A DNA stretch of 38,303 nucleotides from a virus, in IMG/VR virus record IMGVR_UViG_3300010285_000006, positions 1 through 38,303 of that record; one strand, written 5' to 3'. Shown piece after piece: positions 1 to 38,303 of this stretch. The first letter of the stretch is position 1. Each line of letters starts with the position of its first letter. The notes under the pieces were generated by a model. The model had not been told where the DNA came from and did not search any database. It was given only the letters and a program-made list of their open reading frames with translations. Both the position numbers and the translations under genes were made by a program.

Positions 1-123
1 AAAATAGATAGAGTCTCCAGAAGTGTTTCAGACTTCTCTTCTCTCATTGATGAGCTCATTAGTCTAGATATAGGTTTTATTTGTATAAAGGATAATTTTG
101 ATACTACCACTCCTATGGGCAGA
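1..123. repeat. Terminal direct repeat, left copy. It is identical to 38181..38303 and marks a circular or concatemeric assembly overlap.
   Basis: Base-by-base comparison: aaaatagatagagtctccag...cctatgggcaga is present at both window ends (123/123). Confidence 0.97.
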
Positions 124-2391: not shown

Positions 2392-3324
2392 CTACCACAA
2401 TAAAAAATCCTCATTATCAATTTCATCTAGATATCTACTAGGTAAAGAATATTTTTTATTTGTATCAAATACATCATAAATATCTATATCTATGTTTTTA
2501 TTAACTTTCAATGTTATTATTGTACCATCCCATTTATTATCTAATTCATATGCATAGCAATTACCTTCACCTATGTATAAATGCCCGTTGTTACTATAAA
2601 TATGCATTTCCCCTAAATTTCGCTCAACAAACCTTCTTGTAATATATAATCCATTTCCTTGCCCTGAACCTACTGTGACTTGCTTTTCAGTTGATTTTAT
2701 TAAGCACTCGATATTATTTAAATTAGCATATATAGCATTTTGCTTCAAAGAACCTGGAATACCTATTCCATTGTCTACTACACAGAACTCAACATGATCT
2801 TTATAGCTCTGAGCAATTAGAAATCCACCTATATGGGATTGTGAGTGTTCGAAAACATTATCTAAAAGTTCGTTAAAGGACCAGTCAATTGTATAGTATA
2901 AACTTTTAGATATACAATCATTATTAACCAGTATAGCCATTATTTCATCTACTAAATCATAATTTATTGCGGTTATATTCTTTATTGTAATAAATCTTCC
3001 AGCTTCATTATATCTATTAAAGTTTTCATAATTATCTATTCCAAGTATATTGTAAAAATCCATTCTTGATATATATTGGTCAATATCCGAGTTTGGTTTT
3101 ACAGATATATCTAAAAAATGGGAAGTATAAATTTTATTAACAAGATAACTTACTAATACAGTCAGAGCACTAGGAGAAATATATCTGCACTTACTAAAAT
3201 CTACAATAATCTCATTATAATCAGAAACTATGTACTTGTTATCAATATCATTAAATTGTTCAAATAATGATTCTAGATTAATATCTCTACATATTCTCAA
3301 AATATAACGACCCAATAAAATCAC
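2392..3324 (-). CDS. GHKL (HATPase_c) ATPase or SpoIIAB/RsbW-like serine kinase, with an N-terminal STAS-like region.
   Basis: N box ELLDNVFEHS, G1 box VVDNGIGIPG, G2 box GSGQGNGLY. N-terminal IIVDFSKCRYISPSALTVLVSYL is STAS-like. The start is uncertain (GTG 3324 or TTG 3315, both after AAAGGTGA). Confidence 0.7.
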   Translation of the reverse strand: MILLGRYILRICRDINLESLFEQFNDIDNKYIVSDYNEIIVDFSKCRYISPSALTVLVSYLVNKIYTSHFLDISVKPNSDIDQYISRMDFYNILGIDNYENFNRYNEAGRFITIKNITAINYDLVDEIMAILVNNDCISKSLYYTIDWSFNELLDNVFEHSQSHIGGFLIAQSYKDHVEFCVVDNGIGIPGSLKQNAIYANLNNIECLIKSTEKQVTVGSGQGNGLYITRRFVERNLGEMHIYSNNGHLYIGEGNCYAYELDNKWDGTIITLKVNKNIDIDIYDVFDTNKKYSLPSRYLDEIDNEDFLLW

Positions 3325-5085: not shown

Positions 5086-5283
5086 TTACATCACCTCTAA
5101 CATAATATTGGTAATTTGTTGCCCCATAGCCTCTATAATAGACAAATATTCATTAAATGGTACTATTGTTTCATCGTATTCCCACCCGTGGAACCCTTCT
5201 TCGCTTTCCTCATCAACTCTCACTATATTTTTGCGTATATATACTTTGTCCTGTAAAACTTCAATTGGCTTTAATTCTATCAT
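5086..5283 (-). CDS. Hypothetical small tail-region protein (in the XkdW position).
   Basis: ATG at 5283 follows AAGAGGAA. Called from its position between the tail fibre and XkdX genes. Confidence 0.5.
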   Translation of the reverse strand: MIELKPIEVLQDKVYIRKNIVRVDEESEEGFHGWEYDETIVPFNEYLSIIEAMGQQITNIMLEVM

Positions 5284-5334
5284 AGTTCCTCTTACTTTCA
5301 CTTGGAATCACCTCTTTATAATATTTTTCAACTT

Positions 5335-5366
5335 GCCCCTGAGATGAGTGACTAAGAACCCCCTGT
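5335..5366 (-). repeat. 32-nt A-containing copy of part of the tail-fibre 3' end (5503..5534). Candidate vestigial DGR template repeat.
   Basis: 27/32 identical. All 5 mismatches are A in this copy versus G in the gene, read on the coding strand. Confidence 0.6.
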
Positions 5367-5391
5367 TTTACTTGCCTATATATTTATATTT

Positions 5392-7044
5392 TTATTTTCT
5401 GGGTATACAAAGCAAGCCACCGCCGATAGGACGATTCCGAACACCCGACGAACTACCCGCATGCAGACAGCACGCCCCCGCACCCGAGCCATAAGTCCAA
5501 TCGCCCCCGAGACGAGCGACCAAGAACCCCCCGTAGGTTGCGTTCTGCCAGAAGTAATCGTTTAAAGGTTTATTGCTCGCCCCGAGCGTTTCACTTGGGA
5601 GATACATAAAGTCGCAATCTGGATGATAGCCTATTGCACTAATATATCCATTAGTTTTTGCTAATGTAAATCCACACGGCTTATACGGGTCTGTTTTAAT
5701 ATCACTAACAAAATTGCTGTCTGCCCAATATGCTTCGTGGATACCATTAGCTTCAATATTTAATCCATCAGCCCACTTCAAAATGTTACCCCAAGGATTT
5801 TCTCTGCCACGATAAGATACCGATACTTGCCCATTAGTTCCAGGAGCCATACCAGAAGCGTTACCCAAGGAGGACGTTGCACCTGTGTTAGTAGCCATAT
5901 TTGTAGCACCATCGTCGGCAACATCTACTCGACCTCTGCCTATCACTGTTTGAAAATCAAATGTTGCATACTCAATTGACATCAGCATGACCTCTGCATA
6001 ATCTGCAAGTATATCTAACTGTTGCCAACCCTCACCACGATTATTTGCTAATTTACGTGTGTTTACGATAGTCAGGTTTTGCGTTAATCCGCTTGCAGGC
6101 TTTACACCTGCTATGGATGATAGTTTGTCGGTATTGAAGTCAGCCACTTGGTTATCGTTCGACAAGTAAGCGCCTGCTGACACGTCAAATATGCTGCCTT
6201 CATAAGCGGGATAATAAATATAGTCATATTCAACGCCATTACGGATAAAAGCGGGATGTAATTTAAAGCCTGCTTTCGGATAATCCGATATATAATCCCG
6301 CCATTTACGTAGATGAAAGCCTATCCCGTTCTGAATAGGTTCAAGTACAAGCGGTACTCTTTTGTAATAAAATTTTGGCTGTTCTACCATCACCTGTACA
6401 GGTGTGCCAACAGGATATACAGTACCATTTTTGTTTATTTCAATAGTTGTAAATCCTGTTTCAATATATCCAGGATCCCCGTAATATGCAAGTACAGTTG
6501 TATCGTCAGCTACAATACAACGTCTACGTTTATAAGCATTAATATTGTCAAAATTTGCTCCTGCTGATTTTCCGACTGCTCCGGCAAGTCTTGTTATTGT
6601 ATTATTTGGTATATCTACTTCTATACCATATATATCGTTATCGGTATAACCAACGTAAGCTTTTAGGTTCGCAATATCTTCCAAATGTGACTTAACTCTA
6701 GTATTAACTTCATTTATTGAACCAACTAAATTAGATTTTTCATCAGTATTCAAATCTTCTAAATTTCCAACTTCTTCCATAAACGACGCAAGTATCTGAT
6801 CTGTATGATCAAGCCTTGCAGGTAATGTATCAAAAGTCCCATATTGAGAACTAACCCTACTTGCCAAAACTTCTACATCTTTATTAGGGTCCAAATCTTG
6901 TCCCTTCAGAATTTCGTCAACTCTATCTTTCAGCTCATTGAGCTCGTCCACTTCATTTTGGACCCTGTCAAACCCTTGGGTGATTTTCTTATATTCCTGG
7001 CTAATTGGAGCCGATGGTGTCAGATTTGCATACCTATTCGCCAT
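5392..7044 (-). CDS. Tail fibre or receptor-binding protein with a G-rich, adenine-depleted C-terminal segment.
   Basis: About 550 aa. ATG at 7044 follows GGAGAAGGGA. N-terminal coiled coil. Last large gene of the tail module. The C-terminus GGDWTYGSGAGACCLHAGSSSGVRNRPIGGGLLC is encoded by 5412..5540. Confidence 0.7.
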   Translation of the reverse strand: MANRYANLTPSAPISQEYKKITQGFDRVQNEVDELNELKDRVDEILKGQDLDPNKDVEVLASRVSSQYGTFDTLPARLDHTDQILASFMEEVGNLEDLNTDEKSNLVGSINEVNTRVKSHLEDIANLKAYVGYTDNDIYGIEVDIPNNTITRLAGAVGKSAGANFDNINAYKRRRCIVADDTTVLAYYGDPGYIETGFTTIEINKNGTVYPVGTPVQVMVEQPKFYYKRVPLVLEPIQNGIGFHLRKWRDYISDYPKAGFKLHPAFIRNGVEYDYIYYPAYEGSIFDVSAGAYLSNDNQVADFNTDKLSSIAGVKPASGLTQNLTIVNTRKLANNRGEGWQQLDILADYAEVMLMSIEYATFDFQTVIGRGRVDVADDGATNMATNTGATSSLGNASGMAPGTNGQVSVSYRGRENPWGNILKWADGLNIEANGIHEAYWADSNFVSDIKTDPYKPCGFTLAKTNGYISAIGYHPDCDFMYLPSETLGASNKPLNDYFWQNATYGGFLVARLGGDWTYGSGAGACCLHAGSSSGVRNRPIGGGLLCIPRK

Positions 7045-7210
7045 TTTGTTCTGCGCTCCCTTCTCCTTTATGCAAAGCATTAATCAAATCTACATAAGCT
7101 GGTACTTCTTTACCAGATAATTGAGCACGGCTTAAAAATTCCTGTAAAATTACAAATTGTTCTTCTGTTAGCTTTATATTTATCATTTTTCCTTTTCTAA
7201 TTTCCGACAT
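7034..7210 (-). CDS. Hypothetical small protein.
   Basis: ATG at 7210 follows GAGGTGA. It overlaps the tail-fibre start by 11 nt. Confidence 0.45.
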   Translation of the reverse strand: MSEIRKGKMINIKLTEEQFVILQEFLSRAQLSGKEVPAYVDLINALHKGEGSAEQNGE

Positions 7211-7223
7211 TTTAATTATCACC

Positions 7224-9095
7224 TCACACTAATCCATAACTATTTAAGGCATTTCGCAAATTATTAAGAGCATTTCTTATATTAATAACATCAGTCTTCA
7301 AATTGTTTAACATGTTTTGCTCATTAGAGCTATATGAACTTCCTGCCGATTGTGTTGTTACAATTGAAGACGGCTGAGAAACAGTAGTTCTTGAAGCAGG
7401 TGAATAACTAAAAAAGCCTAATCTACTTCCTCTATGCTGTAAATAACCGTTAAGTTCTAGCGTACCTGCCCAGTTACTTGGACCAATTGTGATGTAATTA
7501 TAACTTAAATATAATCCTGATACATACGTTGAATCATCAATTCCATCATTCAATCCAATTGAATTACCACTTGGCATAAATATACCGCCATTAATTGTTA
7601 AGCCATTTGACCAAAATTTCAAGACTCTATTATTATTTCTACTCAAATAAAAATTGTCAGAATTATTCTCGAGTATTACATTTGATGATGAGCTACCAAG
7701 CTGGATTCGATCACCTACAACTGCATCAGTATCTACATTTATTGTTACTCCAGAAAGAGTACCCCCTTGAATTTTATCTGCTGTGATTGTAATAGCTTCT
7801 AGAGCGTTTGTCGTTATTTCACCATTGAATATGAATTTGCCTTTTGTTACATCAAAATAAAGCTGTTGTATTCCTCCAGCTTTGAATTCCAATTTGTCAG
7901 AATTAAGTGTTACTTCTGCTTGTCCATCAGAGCGCTTTATTTGTAAACCATTTTTCCTGCCAATCACAACTCCGTAATATGGAACATCCTTCTGCACCAT
8001 TTTCTGAATCGTCCGTTTAAGTTGCCCTTCAAAAGGAAATTCACTTTCCTGCTCGGTATCTGAATCAGATAAGGACACCATTTTTAATCCACCACGGAAA
8101 GATGACCTATGTTCAAGAAGTATAGTAGTCAAGGTTGTGTTTCCATCCCAACGAAAGTTAGCATTCTGCCAAGGCATATTTGCATCTTCCCAGGCAAGAG
8201 TGTTCACTTCTTCGAGAGAGATCAAATCCCCGGGTTCGATAGCTGGATTTCCGCGCCAATCCAGAGATATAGGTAAATAGCTAAATCCATTTAACTGATT
8301 ATAAATATCCGTGAGTATATCTTCGGTGATATACATATTTGTGAATTCCAATGTATTAGCTTCTGTGCCTTCGCCAATTTCCAAGTATTCACCTTCTGAA
8401 TTGTATATACAACGTAGCTTTGTAATCGTCTTAATTGGGTTTGTTGGAGTTATCTTAGAATATAAATTCCTTCCTATTGTCACTGGAGTTTTAGCTTCGG
8501 CAGGCCTAATCATTTTTAATTTACCGTCTTTAGACATTTTGAAACAAGCTGCATGAGCTGACGCTATATATGAAAGCATCTCATTGATTGTTATTTCTTC
8601 ATCTTTGTATGGCACATCATAATTAGGATTGATTACTACACTGTCGTCAGCTTCCATACCAAGAATAAGTAATATTTCATCCAATACTTGTTGCATACTT
8701 ACTGGATAAGTTAAACTTGAATCAAATTTCTGATTGGCGTATATAAGTCTGTCATAAGCTGTAAATTCATAAACTCCTCTGTTTTTTATTCTTTTGTCAA
8801 TATAGAATACTCCAAGTGGTACCCATTCTGTATCGCTATCTGAACCCGTCAACTGTATATAGGGTTTTATCTCAGCATTTGAAGCAATGATATCCTCTGT
8901 TTTGATTTGAATGGTAAGCTTTGATGAGACAACAGAGCCAATTGCAAAAATAGAATTTTCAGTTAAGGCATCTTCAAGTCCATATTGTATTATTCTCTTA
9001 TCGTCATATTCAACACCGTTAATAATTGTCTTAACGCGAAATTCTCTATTGGGTGAGCTTATATATTCTTGAAAAAGTGGAGATGTTTCATACAC
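7224..9095 (-). CDS. Tail-tip or baseplate hub protein (Tal-like, siphovirus tail component).
   Basis: 623 aa with a GTG start after AAGGGGTGA. Called from its position downstream of the tape measure and Dit-like genes. Confidence 0.55.
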   Translation of the reverse strand: MYETSPLFQEYISSPNREFRVKTIINGVEYDDKRIIQYGLEDALTENSIFAIGSVVSSKLTIQIKTEDIIASNAEIKPYIQLTGSDSDTEWVPLGVFYIDKRIKNRGVYEFTAYDRLIYANQKFDSSLTYPVSMQQVLDEILLILGMEADDSVVINPNYDVPYKDEEITINEMLSYIASAHAACFKMSKDGKLKMIRPAEAKTPVTIGRNLYSKITPTNPIKTITKLRCIYNSEGEYLEIGEGTEANTLEFTNMYITEDILTDIYNQLNGFSYLPISLDWRGNPAIEPGDLISLEEVNTLAWEDANMPWQNANFRWDGNTTLTTILLEHRSSFRGGLKMVSLSDSDTEQESEFPFEGQLKRTIQKMVQKDVPYYGVVIGRKNGLQIKRSDGQAEVTLNSDKLEFKAGGIQQLYFDVTKGKFIFNGEITTNALEAITITADKIQGGTLSGVTINVDTDAVVGDRIQLGSSSSNVILENNSDNFYLSRNNNRVLKFWSNGLTINGGIFMPSGNSIGLNDGIDDSTYVSGLYLSYNYITIGPSNWAGTLELNGYLQHRGSRLGFFSYSPASRTTVSQPSSIVTTQSAGSSYSSNEQNMLNNLKTDVINIRNALNNLRNALNSYGLV

Positions 9096-23718: not shown

Positions 23719-23749
23719 TTTTCACTCTATACAATATCGTTGTAATGTG
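23719..23749 (-). repeat. 31-nt upstream element, copy A. Promoter-like, 25 nt before the 23693 start.
   Basis: ttttcactctatacaatatcgttgtaatgtg. Confidence 0.85.
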
Positions 23750-23751
23750 AC

Positions 23752-24036
23752 TTAATCTTTATTGAAATTAAAAGCATCATCTTGTCTTGATTGCATAATG
23801 CCATTTCTATATCTATCTTTACCTTCTGTCCATTCTTCTTTAACTCTGGCAGTAGCTCCACATTTAATACATTCGTATTCGGCATTATATATATGCTCTT
23901 CTTCCGATTTATTTAGAATACGAATTCTTACCCCTGTGCAATAGTGGCATCCTTCTACTAACAAACCTTCCTTAAAGTTTAAGAGTATATACCAACATAT
24001 TTTTAATTTAATCCATAGAGTTGCTTGTTTTTTCAT
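23752..24036 (-). CDS. Hypothetical protein with a CxxC...CxxC Zn-ribbon-like motif.
   Basis: 94 aa, CHYCTG...CIKCG. Confidence 0.5.
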   Translation of the reverse strand: MKKQATLWIKLKICWYILLNFKEGLLVEGCHYCTGVRIRILNKSEEEHIYNAEYECIKCGATARVKEEWTEGKDRYRNGIMQSRQDDAFNFNKD

Positions 24037-24046
24037 ATTTCCACCC

Positions 24047-24079
24047 TTTTTTCTTAATTTTTTCTTAATTTTTTCTTAA
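24047..24079 (-). repeat. Three tandem 11-nt units (ttttttcttaa) in the 5' leader of 23752..24036.
   Basis: Direct reading shows phased A6 tracts at an 11-bp period. Confidence 0.9.
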
Positions 24080-24088
24080 TTCACAATA

Positions 24089-24119
24089 TTTTCACTCTAT
24101 ACAATATCGTTGGAATGTG
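24089..24119 (-). repeat. 31-nt upstream element, copy B.
   Basis: ttttcactctatacaatatcgttggaatgtg. Confidence 0.85.
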
Positions 24120-24122
24120 TAA

Positions 24123-24248
24123 CTATATAGGGCATTTATCGTATCCAAAAATACATTGCTTTTTATTACATTCTTCTTCGCAATATTCAATCATTTCATC
24201 TATTGCTTCATCAAACTTTATAAAGTCAGGCTTATTTTCTTCTTTCAT
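24123..24248 (-). CDS. Small Cys-rich hypothetical protein (41 aa, not in the ORF track).
   Basis: Hand translation: MKEENKPDFIKFDEAIDEMIEYCEEECNKKQCIFGYDKCPI. RBS GAGGTGA. Confidence 0.45.
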   Translation of the reverse strand: MKEENKPDFIKFDEAIDEMIEYCEEECNKKQCIFGYDKCPI

Positions 24249-24274
24249 TATTTCACCTCACTTAGTACACAATA

Positions 24275-24305
24275 TTTTCACTCTATACAATATTGTTGAT
24301 CTGTA
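24275..24305 (-). repeat. 31-nt upstream element, copy C.
   Basis: ttttcactctatacaatattgttgatctgta. Confidence 0.8.
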
Positions 24306-24359
24306 TATTTTTAGATGCTTGTAAATTTTCCCCTTATTACAATATTATTGTACTACTTC

Positions 24360-25256
24360 TTACTTCAACTCAAAACAATTCCCGGTTCTAATACTTTGAG
24401 CAATTAACCTCACAAGTTCATTAATTACGTTGTATTGGCATTTTTTATCCTTGCAGAATGATTCAACTTTACCTTTGTCATATGAAATATTCACATCATC
24501 AAGAAATTTTGTAACCATCATTGTCATTTCTGACTCCGAGAATCTTTTAACTTCGTGCCTAATAGTAAATCTCCTAAGAAGTGCATCATCAATCATATCA
24601 ATACGGTTTGTTGCTCCGATTATAATAGTGTCATTTCTCACACAGTCCAAAGCTTGCATAAGTGATATTACAATCCTTGCCATTTCTCCTACATCTTCAG
24701 TTCCACGCTTCATTCCTATTGCATCGACTTCATCTACCATAAACACGCATTTATGCTTTTCTATAAAGGAAAATGCTTTTGCTATGTTCTTGGCTGTACT
24801 GCCGAGGTAGCTACTTATTGCATTGGCAAAATTCATATATACAAATGGTAAGCCAAGTTTATATGCTATATATCTGCCAAATAGTGTTTTACCTGTACCA
24901 CTTTCTCCATGCAATAAGAGAGAATTAAGGTATTGTATGCCCATTTCGGATAGCTTTAAGCTGGTTTGATACATTCCAACAACCTCATCAAAGACAGCTT
25001 TTTCCCTCTCTGATAGGTAATATCTGTTTTCGTTAAAAGATACTGAAACATCTTCCATGTGAAGAATATCTCTGACATCATGAGGCAATTCCAAAAGATT
25101 CATAGAAGAGGCCTGAAGCTTACGCCTTATGCTTTCACAAAAGCTTTTATTGGCTTTCGTCTTGTCATCATCAATTATTAGTTTTACATACTGTTTGGCT
25201 TTTTGGAGGTCATTGTCTGCTACAGCACTTATAATACCTTTCAGTTTATCGTTCAT
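24360..25256 (-). CDS. Classical-clade AAA+ ATPase.
   Basis: Walker A HGESGTGKT, Walker B VFMVDEVD, second region of homology IIGATNRIDMIDDALLRRF. Confidence 0.8.
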   Translation of the reverse strand: MNDKLKGIISAVADNDLQKAKQYVKLIIDDDKTKANKSFCESIRRKLQASSMNLLELPHDVRDILHMEDVSVSFNENRYYLSEREKAVFDEVVGMYQTSLKLSEMGIQYLNSLLLHGESGTGKTLFGRYIAYKLGLPFVYMNFANAISSYLGSTAKNIAKAFSFIEKHKCVFMVDEVDAIGMKRGTEDVGEMARIVISLMQALDCVRNDTIIIGATNRIDMIDDALLRRFTIRHEVKRFSESEMTMMVTKFLDDVNISYDKGKVESFCKDKKCQYNVINELVRLIAQSIRTGNCFELK

Positions 25257-25286
25257 ATTTTCAACTCCTTATCTTTGGAATGTGAA

Positions 25287-25751
25287 TTAACTATCAAGTT
25301 CTTTTTGAAATTCTTTCACTTCCTGATAAGTGATTTCATCTAAATATTTGCCATGTGGCTTGTAATGTTGGCAATTATTATGATGAATACCATCCGCCAT
25401 AATCGCTAAATTAAAGCTTGTATGACAACAATCCATGATATGTTTTATTTCTTGTTGCTCTTTCTGGTTTTCCGCAAGATTACTACAGAAAGCATCTTTT
25501 TCCTCCTTTGCAATTTCTATATTCTTCAGGTGTTCAATATAGTCGTTATCATTGTTTTTATTAAAAACGCATTTATTGCAATCACTATCATACTCTCCAT
25601 ACCATTTTATTGTCATTGTACTATCGGTATGTTTTTCAAGAGACTTTCTTAGCTTATCGAGGAAGTGATTTATAATAACCTTGATTTTTCCTCCTGCTAA
25701 TTCAGCCCAAGTCCTATTATTTTCAATGTTAATTTCTATTAATAACTTCAT
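25287..25751 (-). CDS. Hypothetical Cys/His-rich protein.
   Basis: ATG at 25751 follows GGAGGA. No family recognised. Confidence 0.5.
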   Translation of the reverse strand: MKLLIEINIENNRTWAELAGGKIKVIINHFLDKLRKSLEKHTDSTMTIKWYGEYDSDCNKCVFNKNNDNDYIEHLKNIEIAKEEKDAFCSNLAENQKEQQEIKHIMDCCHTSFNLAIMADGIHHNNCQHYKPHGKYLDEITYQEVKEFQKELDS

Positions 25752-25790
25752 AACAAATTCCTCCATTTCTTATGCGTTCACTCGACGCAT

Positions 25791-25821
25791 TTTTCACTCT
25801 ATACAATATCGTTGTAATGTG
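25791..25821 (-). repeat. 31-nt upstream element, copy D.
   Basis: ttttcactctatacaatatcgttgtaatgtg. A small hairpin (atgcgt/acgcat) lies between the element and the RBS. Confidence 0.85.
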
Positions 25822-25824
25822 TAA

Positions 25825-26124
25825 TTAATAACTAATCTTTTGTGCACAGTTAGGGCAATAATTCCAACTAACATTATGATGACACACAGGACAGGCTTGA
25901 CTACTTTTTTCAGTTTTAATCACTTTTTGAGGTATTTGCTTTTTAACAGCTTCCAGGGCAATTAACATTGCTTCTTTTTGTTCACTTGTCCAATTAGCCC
26001 ATGCCATTCCTGCCTGTATGATTTCTACAACCCTCTTGTTTTCCAAATTCCAAACCCCCTTAAAACAGTTGGAATGTTCACCAAAATCCCCATTCTCGCC
26101 TTGTAATTTCGTTATACAAGTCAT
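25825..26124 (-). CDS. Hypothetical protein with a C-terminal Zn-ribbon. The start is uncertain.
   Basis: ...ACPVCHHNVSWNYCPNCAQKISY. The annotated 5' end overlaps the upstream gene. An internal TTG after AAGGGGG is plausible. Confidence 0.45.
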   Translation of the reverse strand: MTCITKLQGENGDFGEHSNCFKGVWNLENKRVVEIIQAGMAWANWTSEQKEAMLIALEAVKKQIPQKVIKTEKSSQACPVCHHNVSWNYCPNCAQKISY

Positions 26125-26392
26125 ACAGCTTTTCGTTCCAGTCTGGGCACTCTGGGTCAGGTATAAAATTTTCCGTTACTTCACGATACTTTTCTGGTTC
26201 TATAATGAAACAAATAATGTCATCAGCAGATTTGCCATCCTTTGACCTAAGCCCCCGTTCACCGCCGTGGTCAATATCGCTATCCCTAAATGGCTCCATT
26301 AATGCATTAAGCACATCCTTATTCAATAGACCAGCGTCATAAAGAGTGATAACCTGCTGTTCCATAATCGTGTAGCCCTCATTCCATCCCAT
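26078..26392 (-). CDS. Hypothetical protein.
   Basis: ATG at 26392 follows GGAGGGAG. Copy E of the repeat lies 23 nt upstream. Confidence 0.5.
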   Translation of the reverse strand: MGWNEGYTIMEQQVITLYDAGLLNKDVLNALMEPFRDSDIDHGGERGLRSKDGKSADDIICFIIEPEKYREVTENFIPDPECPDWNEKLYDLYNEITRREWGFW

Positions 26393-26415
26393 CAAAAGCT
26401 CCCTCCTTCGTAATA

Positions 26416-26446
26416 TTTTCACTCTATACAATATTTTCAGAACATG
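26416..26446 (-). repeat. 31-nt upstream element, copy E.
   Basis: ttttcactctatacaatattttcagaacatg. The first 19 nt are identical in all five copies. Confidence 0.8.
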
Positions 26447-26594
26447 TACTATCTCCACTCAGCTATAGCCACTAACCGACCAGGAGACATTTCGCATTTG
26501 CGTTCATGTACTGGTACCAATATCGCCTTAGGTTGCTTTATTTTTAACCTTTTTATCTTTGGTCTTGGTCTTGCATTCTGATTCTTCCTAGGTA

Positions 26595-36100: not shown

Positions 36101-36196
36101 TTCCTTTTGGAATTATTTTTTTACCCATGCAAGGTAGAATTTTGTAAATATGTATTATCTCAGCTAATATCGAATATTAAAGAAAGGGGTTTTTCT

Positions 36197-37249
36197 ATGA
36201 AGGGTAAGAAATGGCTTATTGCCCTCTTAATTACGGTTCTTATATTCTCCAATAGCTTTGTTCTTGCTGCTGATACGAATACAAATCCAGTACCTGCTCC
36301 CTCCCCTTCCACTACTGAAACTCAACAACTAGAAGTACACTTCCTCGATGTGGGACAGGCTGATAGCACTCTAATTCAACTTCCAAACAACCAAATTATT
36401 CTCATCGATGGCGGCAATTCCTCCGATGCTGAATTTATTTGTAAATACATTCAGGACCATAAGATAAAGAAAATAGATTATCTCATAGGTACACATCCGC
36501 ATGAGGACCACATAGGAGGGCTAGAAGCAATTATAAAAACCTTTGATATAGGTAAAATCTATATGCCTAAGGTAGCACATACAACAGAAACATATAAGAA
36601 CTTGCTGCTAACCATCAAAGATAAAAAACTGAGCATCCAGGACCCAGTGGTCGGCACAAATATAATAGATGAAGCAGATATAAAATTCAAAATTCTAGCT
36701 CCTAATTCATCGCAGTATAAAGACCTAAACGATTATTCTATTGTAACCAAGCTCACATATAAAAAGAACTCTTTCCTCTTCACCGGGGATGCCGAGAAAG
36801 TGTCTGAAGATGAAATATTGGCAAAGAAATTTGTTGTAAAAGCTGATGTATTGAAAGTCGGCCACCATGGCAGCACCTCTTCCACCTCGCCAGCATTTGT
36901 TAAAGCAGTATCGCCCAAATACAGTATTATTTCAGTAGGCAAGGACAATAGTTATAATCATCCGGATAATATCATCATAAACAGATTAAAGCTATATGGT
37001 GAAGTCTTCAGGACGGATCTTGATGGCACTGTGATAATAACATCTGATGGAGAACATCTCACTATAGGAAAACAGATAAAAGCAGCTCCTACAGAGCAAA
37101 AGGAAGTATCACAGACAGTATATATTTCAAAAACCGGAACTAAGTATCACAAGGAGAATTGCTCTTATCTAAGCAATAGTAAAATACCTATTAGCTTAGA
37201 TGATGCAAAAGCTAAAGGATACACACCATGTTCTAGATGTAAACCATAA
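36197..37249 (+). CDS. Secreted MBL-fold (ComEC C-terminal-like) metallo-hydrolase with a C-terminal Cys motif. Putative nuclease.
   Basis: Signal peptide MKGKKWLIALLITVLIFSNSFVLA|AD. HFLDVGQADSTLI...GTHPHEDHIGG...KVGHHGS. C-terminal GTKYHKENCSYL...GYTPCSRCKP. Confidence 0.75.
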   Translation: MKGKKWLIALLITVLIFSNSFVLAADTNTNPVPAPSPSTTETQQLEVHFLDVGQADSTLIQLPNNQIILIDGGNSSDAEFICKYIQDHKIKKIDYLIGTHPHEDHIGGLEAIIKTFDIGKIYMPKVAHTTETYKNLLLTIKDKKLSIQDPVVGTNIIDEADIKFKILAPNSSQYKDLNDYSIVTKLTYKKNSFLFTGDAEKVSEDEILAKKFVVKADVLKVGHHGSTSSTSPAFVKAVSPKYSIISVGKDNSYNHPDNIIINRLKLYGEVFRTDLDGTVIITSDGEHLTIGKQIKAAPTEQKEVSQTVYISKTGTKYHKENCSYLSNSKIPISLDDAKAKGYTPCSRCKP

Positions 37250-37958: not shown

Positions 37959-38303
37959 ATGCCTACTGCTGCTATCTATGCTAGAAAATCAGTGGAAACA
38001 GACAAAGGCGAATCAATAGAAAATCAAATAAATAGAGGTATTGCTCTATGCCAACTTAATGGCTGGGATTATATCATATATCAGGACTATGGCATATCCG
38101 GAAAGACTCTTGACCGCCCTGATTTTGAACGCATGATGAAAGATGCACATGCTGGGAAATTTCAATATTTAGTATGTTACAAAATAGATAGAGTCTCCAG
38201 AAGTGTTTCAGACTTCTCTTCTCTCATTGATGAGCTCATTAGTCTAGATATAGGTTTTATTTGTATAAAGGATAATTTTGATACTACCACTCCTATGGGC
38301 AGA
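37959..38303 (+). CDS. int: Large serine recombinase (integrase), N-terminal part. It continues in frame at 1..1884 through the overlap.
   Basis: ATG at 37959 lies 8 nt after GAGGTGA. The translation MPTAAIYARKSVETDKGESIENQ... carries the resolvase-type catalytic serine motif. 37959..38180 is 222 nt, in frame with the ORF at 115..1884. Confidence 0.9.
   Translation, partial: MPTAAIYARKSVETDKGESIENQINRGIALCQLNGWDYIIYQDYGISGKTLDRPDFERMMKDAHAGKFQYLVCYKIDRVSRSVSDFSSLIDELISLDIGFICIKDNFDTTTPMGR
38181..38303. repeat. Terminal direct repeat, right copy (identical to 1..123).
   Basis: Same 123-nt string as the window start. The unit genome length is therefore 38,180 bp. Confidence 0.97.

Follow-up and report, generated by a model that had tools for sequence, protein, structure and literature searches.

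A phage tail-fibre gene carrying the probable remains of a diversity-generating retroelement at its 3' end

Why should a phage tail-fibre gene end in a stretch nearly free of adenine, and be followed by a short partial copy of that stretch in which the adenines are present, in a closed genome that encodes no reverse transcriptase (RT)? The question is raised by the viral record IMGVR_UViG_3300010285_000006, which we analyzed over its positions 1 to 38,303 (38,303 nucleotides, hereafter the window). An initial annotation of the window had read this arrangement as the signature of a diversity-generating retroelement (DGR), with a variable repeat (VR) inside the gene and part of a template repeat (TR) behind it, and had offered three origins: a decayed DGR, a VR serviced in trans by another DGR, or a recombination scar. 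We conclude, with a probability of roughly 0.9, that the locus is the relic of a DGR that targeted the fibre tip and had the layout known as architecture A, i.e., a target gene with its VR, a TR, and an RT gene, with no accessory genes.

The tail-fibre or receptor-binding gene that would have been the DGR target lies on the minus strand at 5392..7044 and encodes 550 amino acids. In the list of open reading frames (ORFs) it spans 5392..7080, an upstream in-frame ATG being present at 7080, 12 codons ahead of 7044, where the true start is likely to be. Five contigs on record encode precisely this 550-aa product, and homologues number more than 6800; the only Pfam match is a sub-threshold one to DUF1759 in the N-terminal coiled region. 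The VR occupies 5407..5534 (minus strand, 128 nt) in register with the VR/TR pairs found in related loci, encodes the peptide end ...YGGFLVARLGGDWTYGSGAGACCLHAGSSSGVRNRPIGGGLLC, and is separated from the end of the gene by 15 nt, stop codon included. It contains 9 A in 128 nt, versus 33% A in the remaining fibre gene (binomial P = 2e-12). The adenine minimum of the whole genome falls at the VR, where a 120-nt stretch has as few as 8 A; the genome mean is 44 +/- 7, about five standard deviations higher, and the next lowest value elsewhere is 21. The adenine depletion noticed in the initial annotation is thus real, and its estimate of about nine A was close: 5412..5540 (129 nt) holds 11 A, 30 C, 53 G, and 35 T, the figure of nine being that of the VR.

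To place this gene end in context, we performed a protein-guided scan of IMG/VR, which returned 242 loci with related fibre genes, 80 of which were fetched and analyzed. In 57 of the 80, a TR-like copy of the last ~120–130 nt of the fibre gene is followed, about 0.9 kb downstream, by a DGR-type RT; a cognate full-length TR with an RT, the search for which had been proposed as a check, therefore exists in relatives at exactly this position. The RT ORF of these relatives carries the DGR-RT signature IGNY[TLI]SQ...YMDD, and that of locus L002 (360 aa) matches RVT_1 with E = 5e-20. Across 63 VR/TR pairs, 1362 of ~1427 mismatches (about 95%) are at TR adenines. The relatives' TR begins about 50 nt past the fibre stop codon, and neither Avd nor any other accessory gene was found with the cassette when the genes flanking that of L002 were checked. 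A target-TR-RT layout without accessory genes is the architecture A of Wu et al. 2018 (PMC5758913). The VR of the window closes with a conserved G/C-rich stretch of 21 nt (ATCGGCGGTGGCTTGCTTTGT, 5407..5427, minus strand), which recurs unchanged at the 3' end of L089's own VR. The TRs of relatives carry fixed A's at this end (ATCAGCAG..CTTACTTTGT), and every relative shows the same fixed A/G contrast of TR and VR. By analogy with BPP-1, 5407..5427 is a putative initiation of mutagenic homing (IMH) sequence and the TR end its putative IMH* counterpart; some of the fixed differences probably represent IMH versus IMH*.

Downstream of the window's fibre gene, fragments of the same cassette were detected in the same order. 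On the minus strand, the stop codon is followed by a spacer (AAATATAAATATAT, 5391..5378), a conserved element that corresponds to the 5' arm of a stem in relatives (AGGCAAGTAAAACA, 5377..5364; the 3' arm is deleted in the window), and a 34-nt TR stub, the 5' end of the former TR (ACAGGGGGTTCTTAGTCACTCATCTCAGGGGCAA, 5366..5333). The stub is collinear with the TR 5' ends of L001, L002, L012, L013, L019, and L089. Recounting confirmed that 5335..5366 and 5503..5534 share 27 of 32 positions and that at each of the five mismatches the downstream copy has A and the gene G. A degenerate 32-mer with R at these five sites matches only those two places, with 0.00 matches expected (100 shuffles). Next come the deletion junction GTT (5332..5330, minus strand), located by blastn against the relatives, and an RT remnant consisting of the last 22 codons and stop, EKYYKEVIPSESKRNYDRIKAN* (5329..5261, minus strand), located by tblastn with the L002 RT. 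The remnant (5329..5264) corresponds to residues 339–360 of that protein, with 64% identity. According to blastn, the window is collinear with L001, L002, L012, L013, and L019 to ~5323, and the alignment resumes from 5329 at a position 1224–1232 nt further in the relative. The block missing from the window takes in ~95 nt at the 3' end of the TR, the spacer that follows it, and RT codons 1 to ~338. The crossover lies somewhere in about 5329..5336, the imperfect short repeats on its two sides being TTGGAATAAT (in the TR) and GCAGAAAAAT (at the RT 3' end). The right boundary of the deletion is set by a 71-aa gene (5086..5301, minus strand) that is homologous to L002 8674..8886 and follows the cassette in intact relatives; it belongs to no Pfam family and is not an Avd. 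Because the RT remnant overlaps the ribosome-binding site (RBS) and the start (5301) of this gene, it has been retained.

The remainder of the element was not found elsewhere in the window. An adenine-tolerant scan for a second full-length TR returned the stub diagonal only, the rest being noise from the A-rich strand (15–25 mismatches per 30). That the genome lacks an RT, as had been stated from the ORF list, was confirmed by Pfam searches of 20 large ORFs of the window, a scan for DGR-RT motifs, and tblastn with a relative's RT, which detected only the 22-codon C-terminal remnant. The small ORFs flanking the fibre gene gave no match to Avd. Closure of the genome is supported by an exact terminal overlap of 123 nt (window 1..123 = 38181..38303), which gives a circle of 38,180 bp, and by two other assemblies of the same phage, ERZ651804 NODE_709 (38257 nt) and ERZ27245369 k141_153441 (38321 nt). 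The circles of 38303, 38257, and 38321 nt, from the three samples 3300012949, ERZ651804, and ERZ27245369, equal 38180 plus k-mer overlaps of 123, 77, and 141, and judging from the contig names they were apparently produced by different assemblers. The three assemblies are 100% identical across the 10–14 kb compared, and the same circle, junction, and VR occur in all three samples. The deletion junction is thus not an assembly artefact.

The differences that separate the window's VR from those of its nearest relatives bear the mark of adenine-specific mutagenesis. The closest intact TR is that of L089 (Logan SRR30424986_12245), whose fibre is 87% identical and whose spacer, stem arm, and TR 5' end are near-identical to those at the window's stub. 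Over a block of 132 nt, the window's VR differs from this TR at 29 positions, of which 28 coincide with adenines of the TR (19 A>G, 6 A>C, and 3 A>T). The fibre of L088 (JGI 3300064362, Ga0610559_078990) is closer still, being 96% identical over the shared region, with 21 of 1350 aligned nt different from the window. The 132-nt VR block accounts for 15 of these differences and the remaining 1218 nt for 6 (Fisher P = 1e-11); each of the 15 in the VR coincides with a TR adenine (P = 4e-10). The confinement of variation to this segment and to TR adenines, which had been suggested as a test in related phages, therefore holds for near-identical fibres. At the protein level, L088 and the window show 1 difference in ~370 upstream residues and ~11 in the last 46, and about 11 of the 12 amino-acid differences between the window and P0005 likewise fall in the last 46 residues. 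Because the differences cluster in the VR at TR adenines, a DGR was diversifying this lineage at a divergence from L088 of no more than 0.5%. This pattern demonstrates that a DGR was formerly active in the lineage and that the diversification was recent.

One feature of the stub had been cause for concern in the initial annotation, namely that its substitutions are all A-to-G and not A-to-N. We resolved this by counting VR bases opposite TR adenines over 56 unique VR/TR pairs, which divided the template adenines into two classes. Those in AA runs (AAT/AAC codons) correspond in the VR to A in 44%, G in 32%, C in 11%, and T in 13% of cases. Isolated adenines correspond to G in 82%, A in 12.5%, and C or T together in 5%, and at the third codon position the proportion of G reaches 94%. 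The five stub adenines are all isolated, and the AAT codons, at which A-to-N changes occur, lay in the part of the TR that was deleted; this is why all five stub mismatches are A-to-G. At silent isolated sites, the conversion to G took place in 95 of 99 cases (GCA>GCG, 20/20; TCA>TCG, 16/17; CTA>CTG, 11/13; TTA>TTG, 48/49), and the silent sites of VRs are likewise depleted of A. Because these codon changes are silent, selection at the protein level cannot explain them. The RT of phage BPP-1 is reported to have an A>G bias in cells outside AAC contexts (bioRxiv 10.1101/2025.08.18.670894), and the near-complete conversion of silent sites in this fibre family exceeds the ~30–50% misincorporation of that enzyme. 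The near-deterministic A>G change at isolated adenines could reflect a distinct error mode of the RT or a G·T-specific repair of the homing intermediate.

The conserved element that survives between the spacer and the stub is one arm of a helix that brackets the TR in relatives. The TR flanks pair over 9–14 bp in 14 of them (L001, L002, L003, L012, L013, L019, L089, L004, L051, L007, L017, L026, L033, and L040). Covariation was analyzed on extracted 9-bp cores, since the automatic alignment of the TR region misplaced the 5' arms of a distant subgroup. Among 10 distinct arm pairs, 100% of positions are paired, a percentage biased by the fact that the arms were picked by complementarity; 7 of the 9 base pairs show double changes, a value that 0 of 500 shuffles attained, and slid controls are paired at 27–49%. 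The core DGR RNA of BPP-1 needs a 20-nt 5' flank, the role of which is unexplained (PMC7826257). The helix bracketing the TR may be the functional counterpart of this requirement, and the covariation suggests that in relatives the spacer upstream of the TR belongs to the DGR RNA.

The VR-bearing end of the fibre was also examined by structure prediction. From a 90-sequence alignment, AlphaFold2 modelled the C-terminal 422 residues with a pLDDT of 91.2 and a pTM of 0.91. The model's top Foldseek match in the PDB is the DGR variable protein TaqVP (5vf4; E = 2.8e-10, probability 1.0, TM ~0.45–0.5), and further matches are Mtd (1yu0–1yu4, ~1e-3; 1yu4, 1.3e-3), TvpA (2y3c, 8e-3), and FGE (1y1h, 0.11); after the DGR variable proteins, the PDB matches are the FGE, PvdO, and EgtB folds. 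Among predicted viral structures, the model matches 'tail collar fiber' proteins with a TM of 0.97. Searches of the fibre against Pfam and a profile search of PDB sequences gave nothing relevant at the sequence level. The VR-bearing domain is thus predicted to have the FGE-type C-type-lectin fold of DGR variable proteins, in agreement with the C-type-lectin-like tip that had been supposed from the Gly-rich peptide. The fibre as a whole is mosaic: P0005, P0006, and the window share ~420 C-terminal residues, and their N-termini are unrelated (alignment A1). In locus L086 (1..17386), an 80%-identical fibre C-terminus and the same downstream 70-aa and XkdX genes occur with a P22-type portal and an SU10-type adaptor. 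Because this C-terminus is found in a phage with a P22-type portal, the fibre tip module moves between virion types.

Altogether, these observations are best explained by the following history. In the ancestor, an RNA spanning the TR and closed by the stem whose 5' arm survives at 5377..5364 would have been reverse-transcribed by a DGR-type RT that misread template adenines. The mutagenised cDNA would have replaced the VR at the 3' end of the fibre gene, rewriting the C-type-lectin-fold tip's ligand-binding face and leaving the VR adenine-poor. A single deletion of ~1.23 kb would subsequently have taken the 3' ~95 nt of the TR, the 3' arm of the stem with the spacer, and RT codons 1 to ~338; short imperfect repeats rich in A probably gave rise to it by slippage or illegitimate recombination. 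Because the deletion stops just upstream of its RBS, the 71-aa gene would have stayed expressed. Having neither an RT gene nor a full-length TR, the locus is not a functional DGR. We infer that the phage now has one fixed fibre-tip sequence that it could not diversify alone, so that the tip is probably frozen. Of the three origins first proposed, the relatives' cassette, the mapped deletion, and the RT remnant bear out the decayed DGR, which lost its RT and kept a TR stub.

Several points weigh against this history or limit it. A direct intact ancestor was not found: exact-pattern scans with the stub (in IMG/VR and in genome and metagenome collections) and with the junction (in IMG/VR) returned 0 matches, and thus no host genome either. 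One reason for the lack of exact stub matches is that the closest intact TR, that of L089, has a G where the stub has an A at one site. Since no direct ancestor was found, the crossover can be placed only within about 8 nt and the microhomology is imperfect. The contig of L088, the closest relative, ends inside the 5' part of the TR, so that the deletion is not precisely datable. Finally, present inactivity rests on the missing parts and on the identical consensus VR in three assemblies, and these are no independent test of VR divergence because they are 100% identical everywhere they were compared.

The same kind of loss has occurred repeatedly in this fibre family. The RT is missing in about 14 of 72 informative loci, and the TR and RT have been lost independently in at least ten other lineages, which kept an adenine-poor VR-like end with 10–18 A per 120 nt. 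In L086/L087, the stop codon is followed by 5 nt and then by RT residues 338–360, the TR being wholly gone, and in L080 RT residues 301–353 are left. In L011, ~85 nt of TR remain without RT. The break lies directly after the stem 5' arm in L015 and within this arm in L006. The junction of L010 shows an AATAT microhomology and that of L014, where no cassette remains, a TTAA microhomology; further junctions were found in L056, L057, and L029/L031. On the left, the breakpoints fall between the stop codon and a point 85 nt into the TR; those on the right are scattered over about 50 nt and never remove the RBS of the next gene. Such losses fit random short-homology deletions filtered by selection. 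The near coincidence of the right breakpoints in the window, L086, and L015 led us to consider a programmed or site-specific excision of the TR and RT; we rejected it in view of the scattered breakpoints across ten lineages and the 4–5-nt microhomologies at some junctions.

In one relative, L020, the cassette is present and the TR itself has an unusual composition. The VR ends at 7452 (region 7300..7800), the TR lies about 200 nt downstream, and the RT ORF, which starts from ~7751, is intact (379 aa, YMDD). This TR has 20 A per 140 nt, versus 41–43 in relatives, and is VR-like except for an A-bearing 3' end; 5 of the 20 VR/TR mismatches are at adenines. A mutagenised copy has apparently overwritten the TR of L020; if true, this would be a second route to DGR silencing.

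If the window's own DGR is gone, its VR might still be diversified in trans by a related DGR phage that co-infects the same cell or resides in it and provides TR cDNA and RT, with homing at the IMH-like end. RT-less fibre genes would then be 'free-riders', re-diversified when they share a cell with such a phage, and the loss of the 1.2-kb cassette would save genome space with tropism switching kept. Mechanistically this is plausible: over its last ~40 nt, G/C-rich IMH-like end and gene tail included, the window's VR is identical to the VR of L089, which has an intact TR, and TRs from several relatives agree with the window's VR at essentially all non-adenine positions. For BPP-1, providing TR and RT in trans works in reconstituted systems (bioRxiv 10.1101/2025.08.18.670894), and since RT-less relatives are common, many orphan VRs could benefit. 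However, a donor element for this phage was not found, and all three assemblies share one consensus VR, whereas the VRs of L088 and L089 each differ. Moreover, diversification before the deletion fully explains the VR pattern, so that no activity in trans is required. Servicing by a host or co-resident DGR, as considered in the initial annotation, is therefore neither needed nor supported, and we regard the free-rider scenario as unlikely.

Still less probable is the third origin, a recombination scar, in which the tip would have been imported from a DGR-bearing phage with the boundary of the exchange inside the donor's TR. In its favour are the unrelated N-termini of the mosaic fibres in P0005, P0006, and the window and the 80%-identical C-terminus in the P22-type-portal phage L086. 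Yet homology continues on both sides of the gap, taking in the 22 C-terminal RT codons and both the 71-aa and the XkdX genes with unchanged order and spacing, and the same kind of internal loss, with other breakpoints, is seen in the at least ten other lineages. Because homology with DGR-bearing relatives is present on both sides of the gap, an internal deletion of the resident cassette is the simplest explanation, and a swap of the tip is not what made the stub. The idea that the repeat and the adenine depletion reflect chance or base composition, for example a partial tandem duplication at a G-rich, Gly/Cys/Arg-rich tip, with no DGR involved, could appeal to the shortness of the repeat (32–39 nt) and to the G content that a Gly-rich peptide itself brings, and is refuted by the 0.00 repeat matches expected, the depth of the adenine minimum, the A-depleted silent sites of VRs, and the homology of the stem arm and RT remnant to DGR parts of relatives.

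The genome that carries this relic is that of a temperate siphovirus, as judged from Pfam scans that identified a serine recombinase, a LexA-like repressor, TerL, capsid, and amidase; nearly all genes lie on the minus strand. A megablast search with 24 kb against sequenced phages (INPHARED) returned no match. A related fibre gene is annotated in an Alkaliphilus metagenome-assembled genome, and the best match among sequenced phages is a Clostridium phage, which together suggest a clostridial host. The early/replication region contains five intergenic copies of a ~37-nt element (TTTTCACTCTATACAATATCGTTG..., window 23719..26452) and tandem repeats of 11 nt (window 24035..24087), which may be repeated promoter or operator sites. 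A metallo-beta-lactamase-fold protein (window 36107..37249, plus strand), for which a weak match to Anti-Pycsar Apyc1 is on record, may be the product of an anti-defence gene. A HATPase_c protein (window 2392..3324, minus strand) adjoins a DUF4325 protein (99-aa gene) beside the recombinase, and the two may form an accessory gene pair close to the attachment site.

The locus provides a base-by-base view of how a phage can lose tropism switching, in this case by one microhomology-type deletion bounded on its right side by the RBS of the next gene, and the adenine depletion of the orphan VR is a record of former hypermutation. The roughly 14 RT-less loci among 72 suggest that such loss is frequent and that there is a hidden pool of 'frozen' hypervariable tips. 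RT-less relics escape DGR surveys because these start from the RT gene, and a limited literature search found no description of TR-stub or RT-remnant scars. An adenine-poor 3' end with a short A-bearing partial copy behind it is a usable signature for former DGR targets and thus for the annotation of receptor-binding proteins. This Avd-less DGR lineage also offers a setting in which to test the TR-closing stem and the division of template adenines into two classes.

Among known systems, the DGR of BPP-1 (mtd VR-avd-TR-Sp-brt) is similar in several respects: it belongs to a temperate phage, its VR is at the 3' end of a tail-fibre or receptor-binding gene, TR-to-VR differences are adenine-specific, the G/C-rich 3' end of the VR shows fixed differences from the TR (IMH versus IMH*, a pair that is putative in the window's family), and the tip has a C-type-lectin fold, Mtd being matched by Foldseek with the predicted model here. 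Its DGR RNA requires sequence on both TR flanks (PMC7826257). Unlike BPP-1, the window has lost the RT and about 75% of the TR, which would make the element defunct; its intact relatives have no avd, their TR lies about 50 nt past the stop codon, and a covarying stem of 9–14 bp brackets it. In addition, the window's fibre has no detectable sequence similarity to Mtd. Architecture A DGRs (PMC5758913) have the layout of the relatives, which consist of target, TR, and RT with no Avd, HRDC, or other accessory gene, whereas the window itself is down to 22 RT codons and a TR of 34 nt. TaqVP (5vf4, from Thermus aquaticus) and TvpA (2y3c) have the same FGE-type C-type-lectin fold, their variable residues likewise lying at the C-terminal end, but they are cellular proteins with an identity of only about 15%, while the protein of the window is a phage tip with an extra N-terminal beta-rich domain. 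The DGRs that metagenome surveys class as 'inactive' are structurally complete and were judged by patterns of single-nucleotide variants (Roux et al. 2021, PMC8144416; Faecalibacterium prophages, PMC11792537); their targets, as is probably true of the window's, are without current diversification, whereas the relic described here has no RT. The window is thus a degenerate member of a known system.

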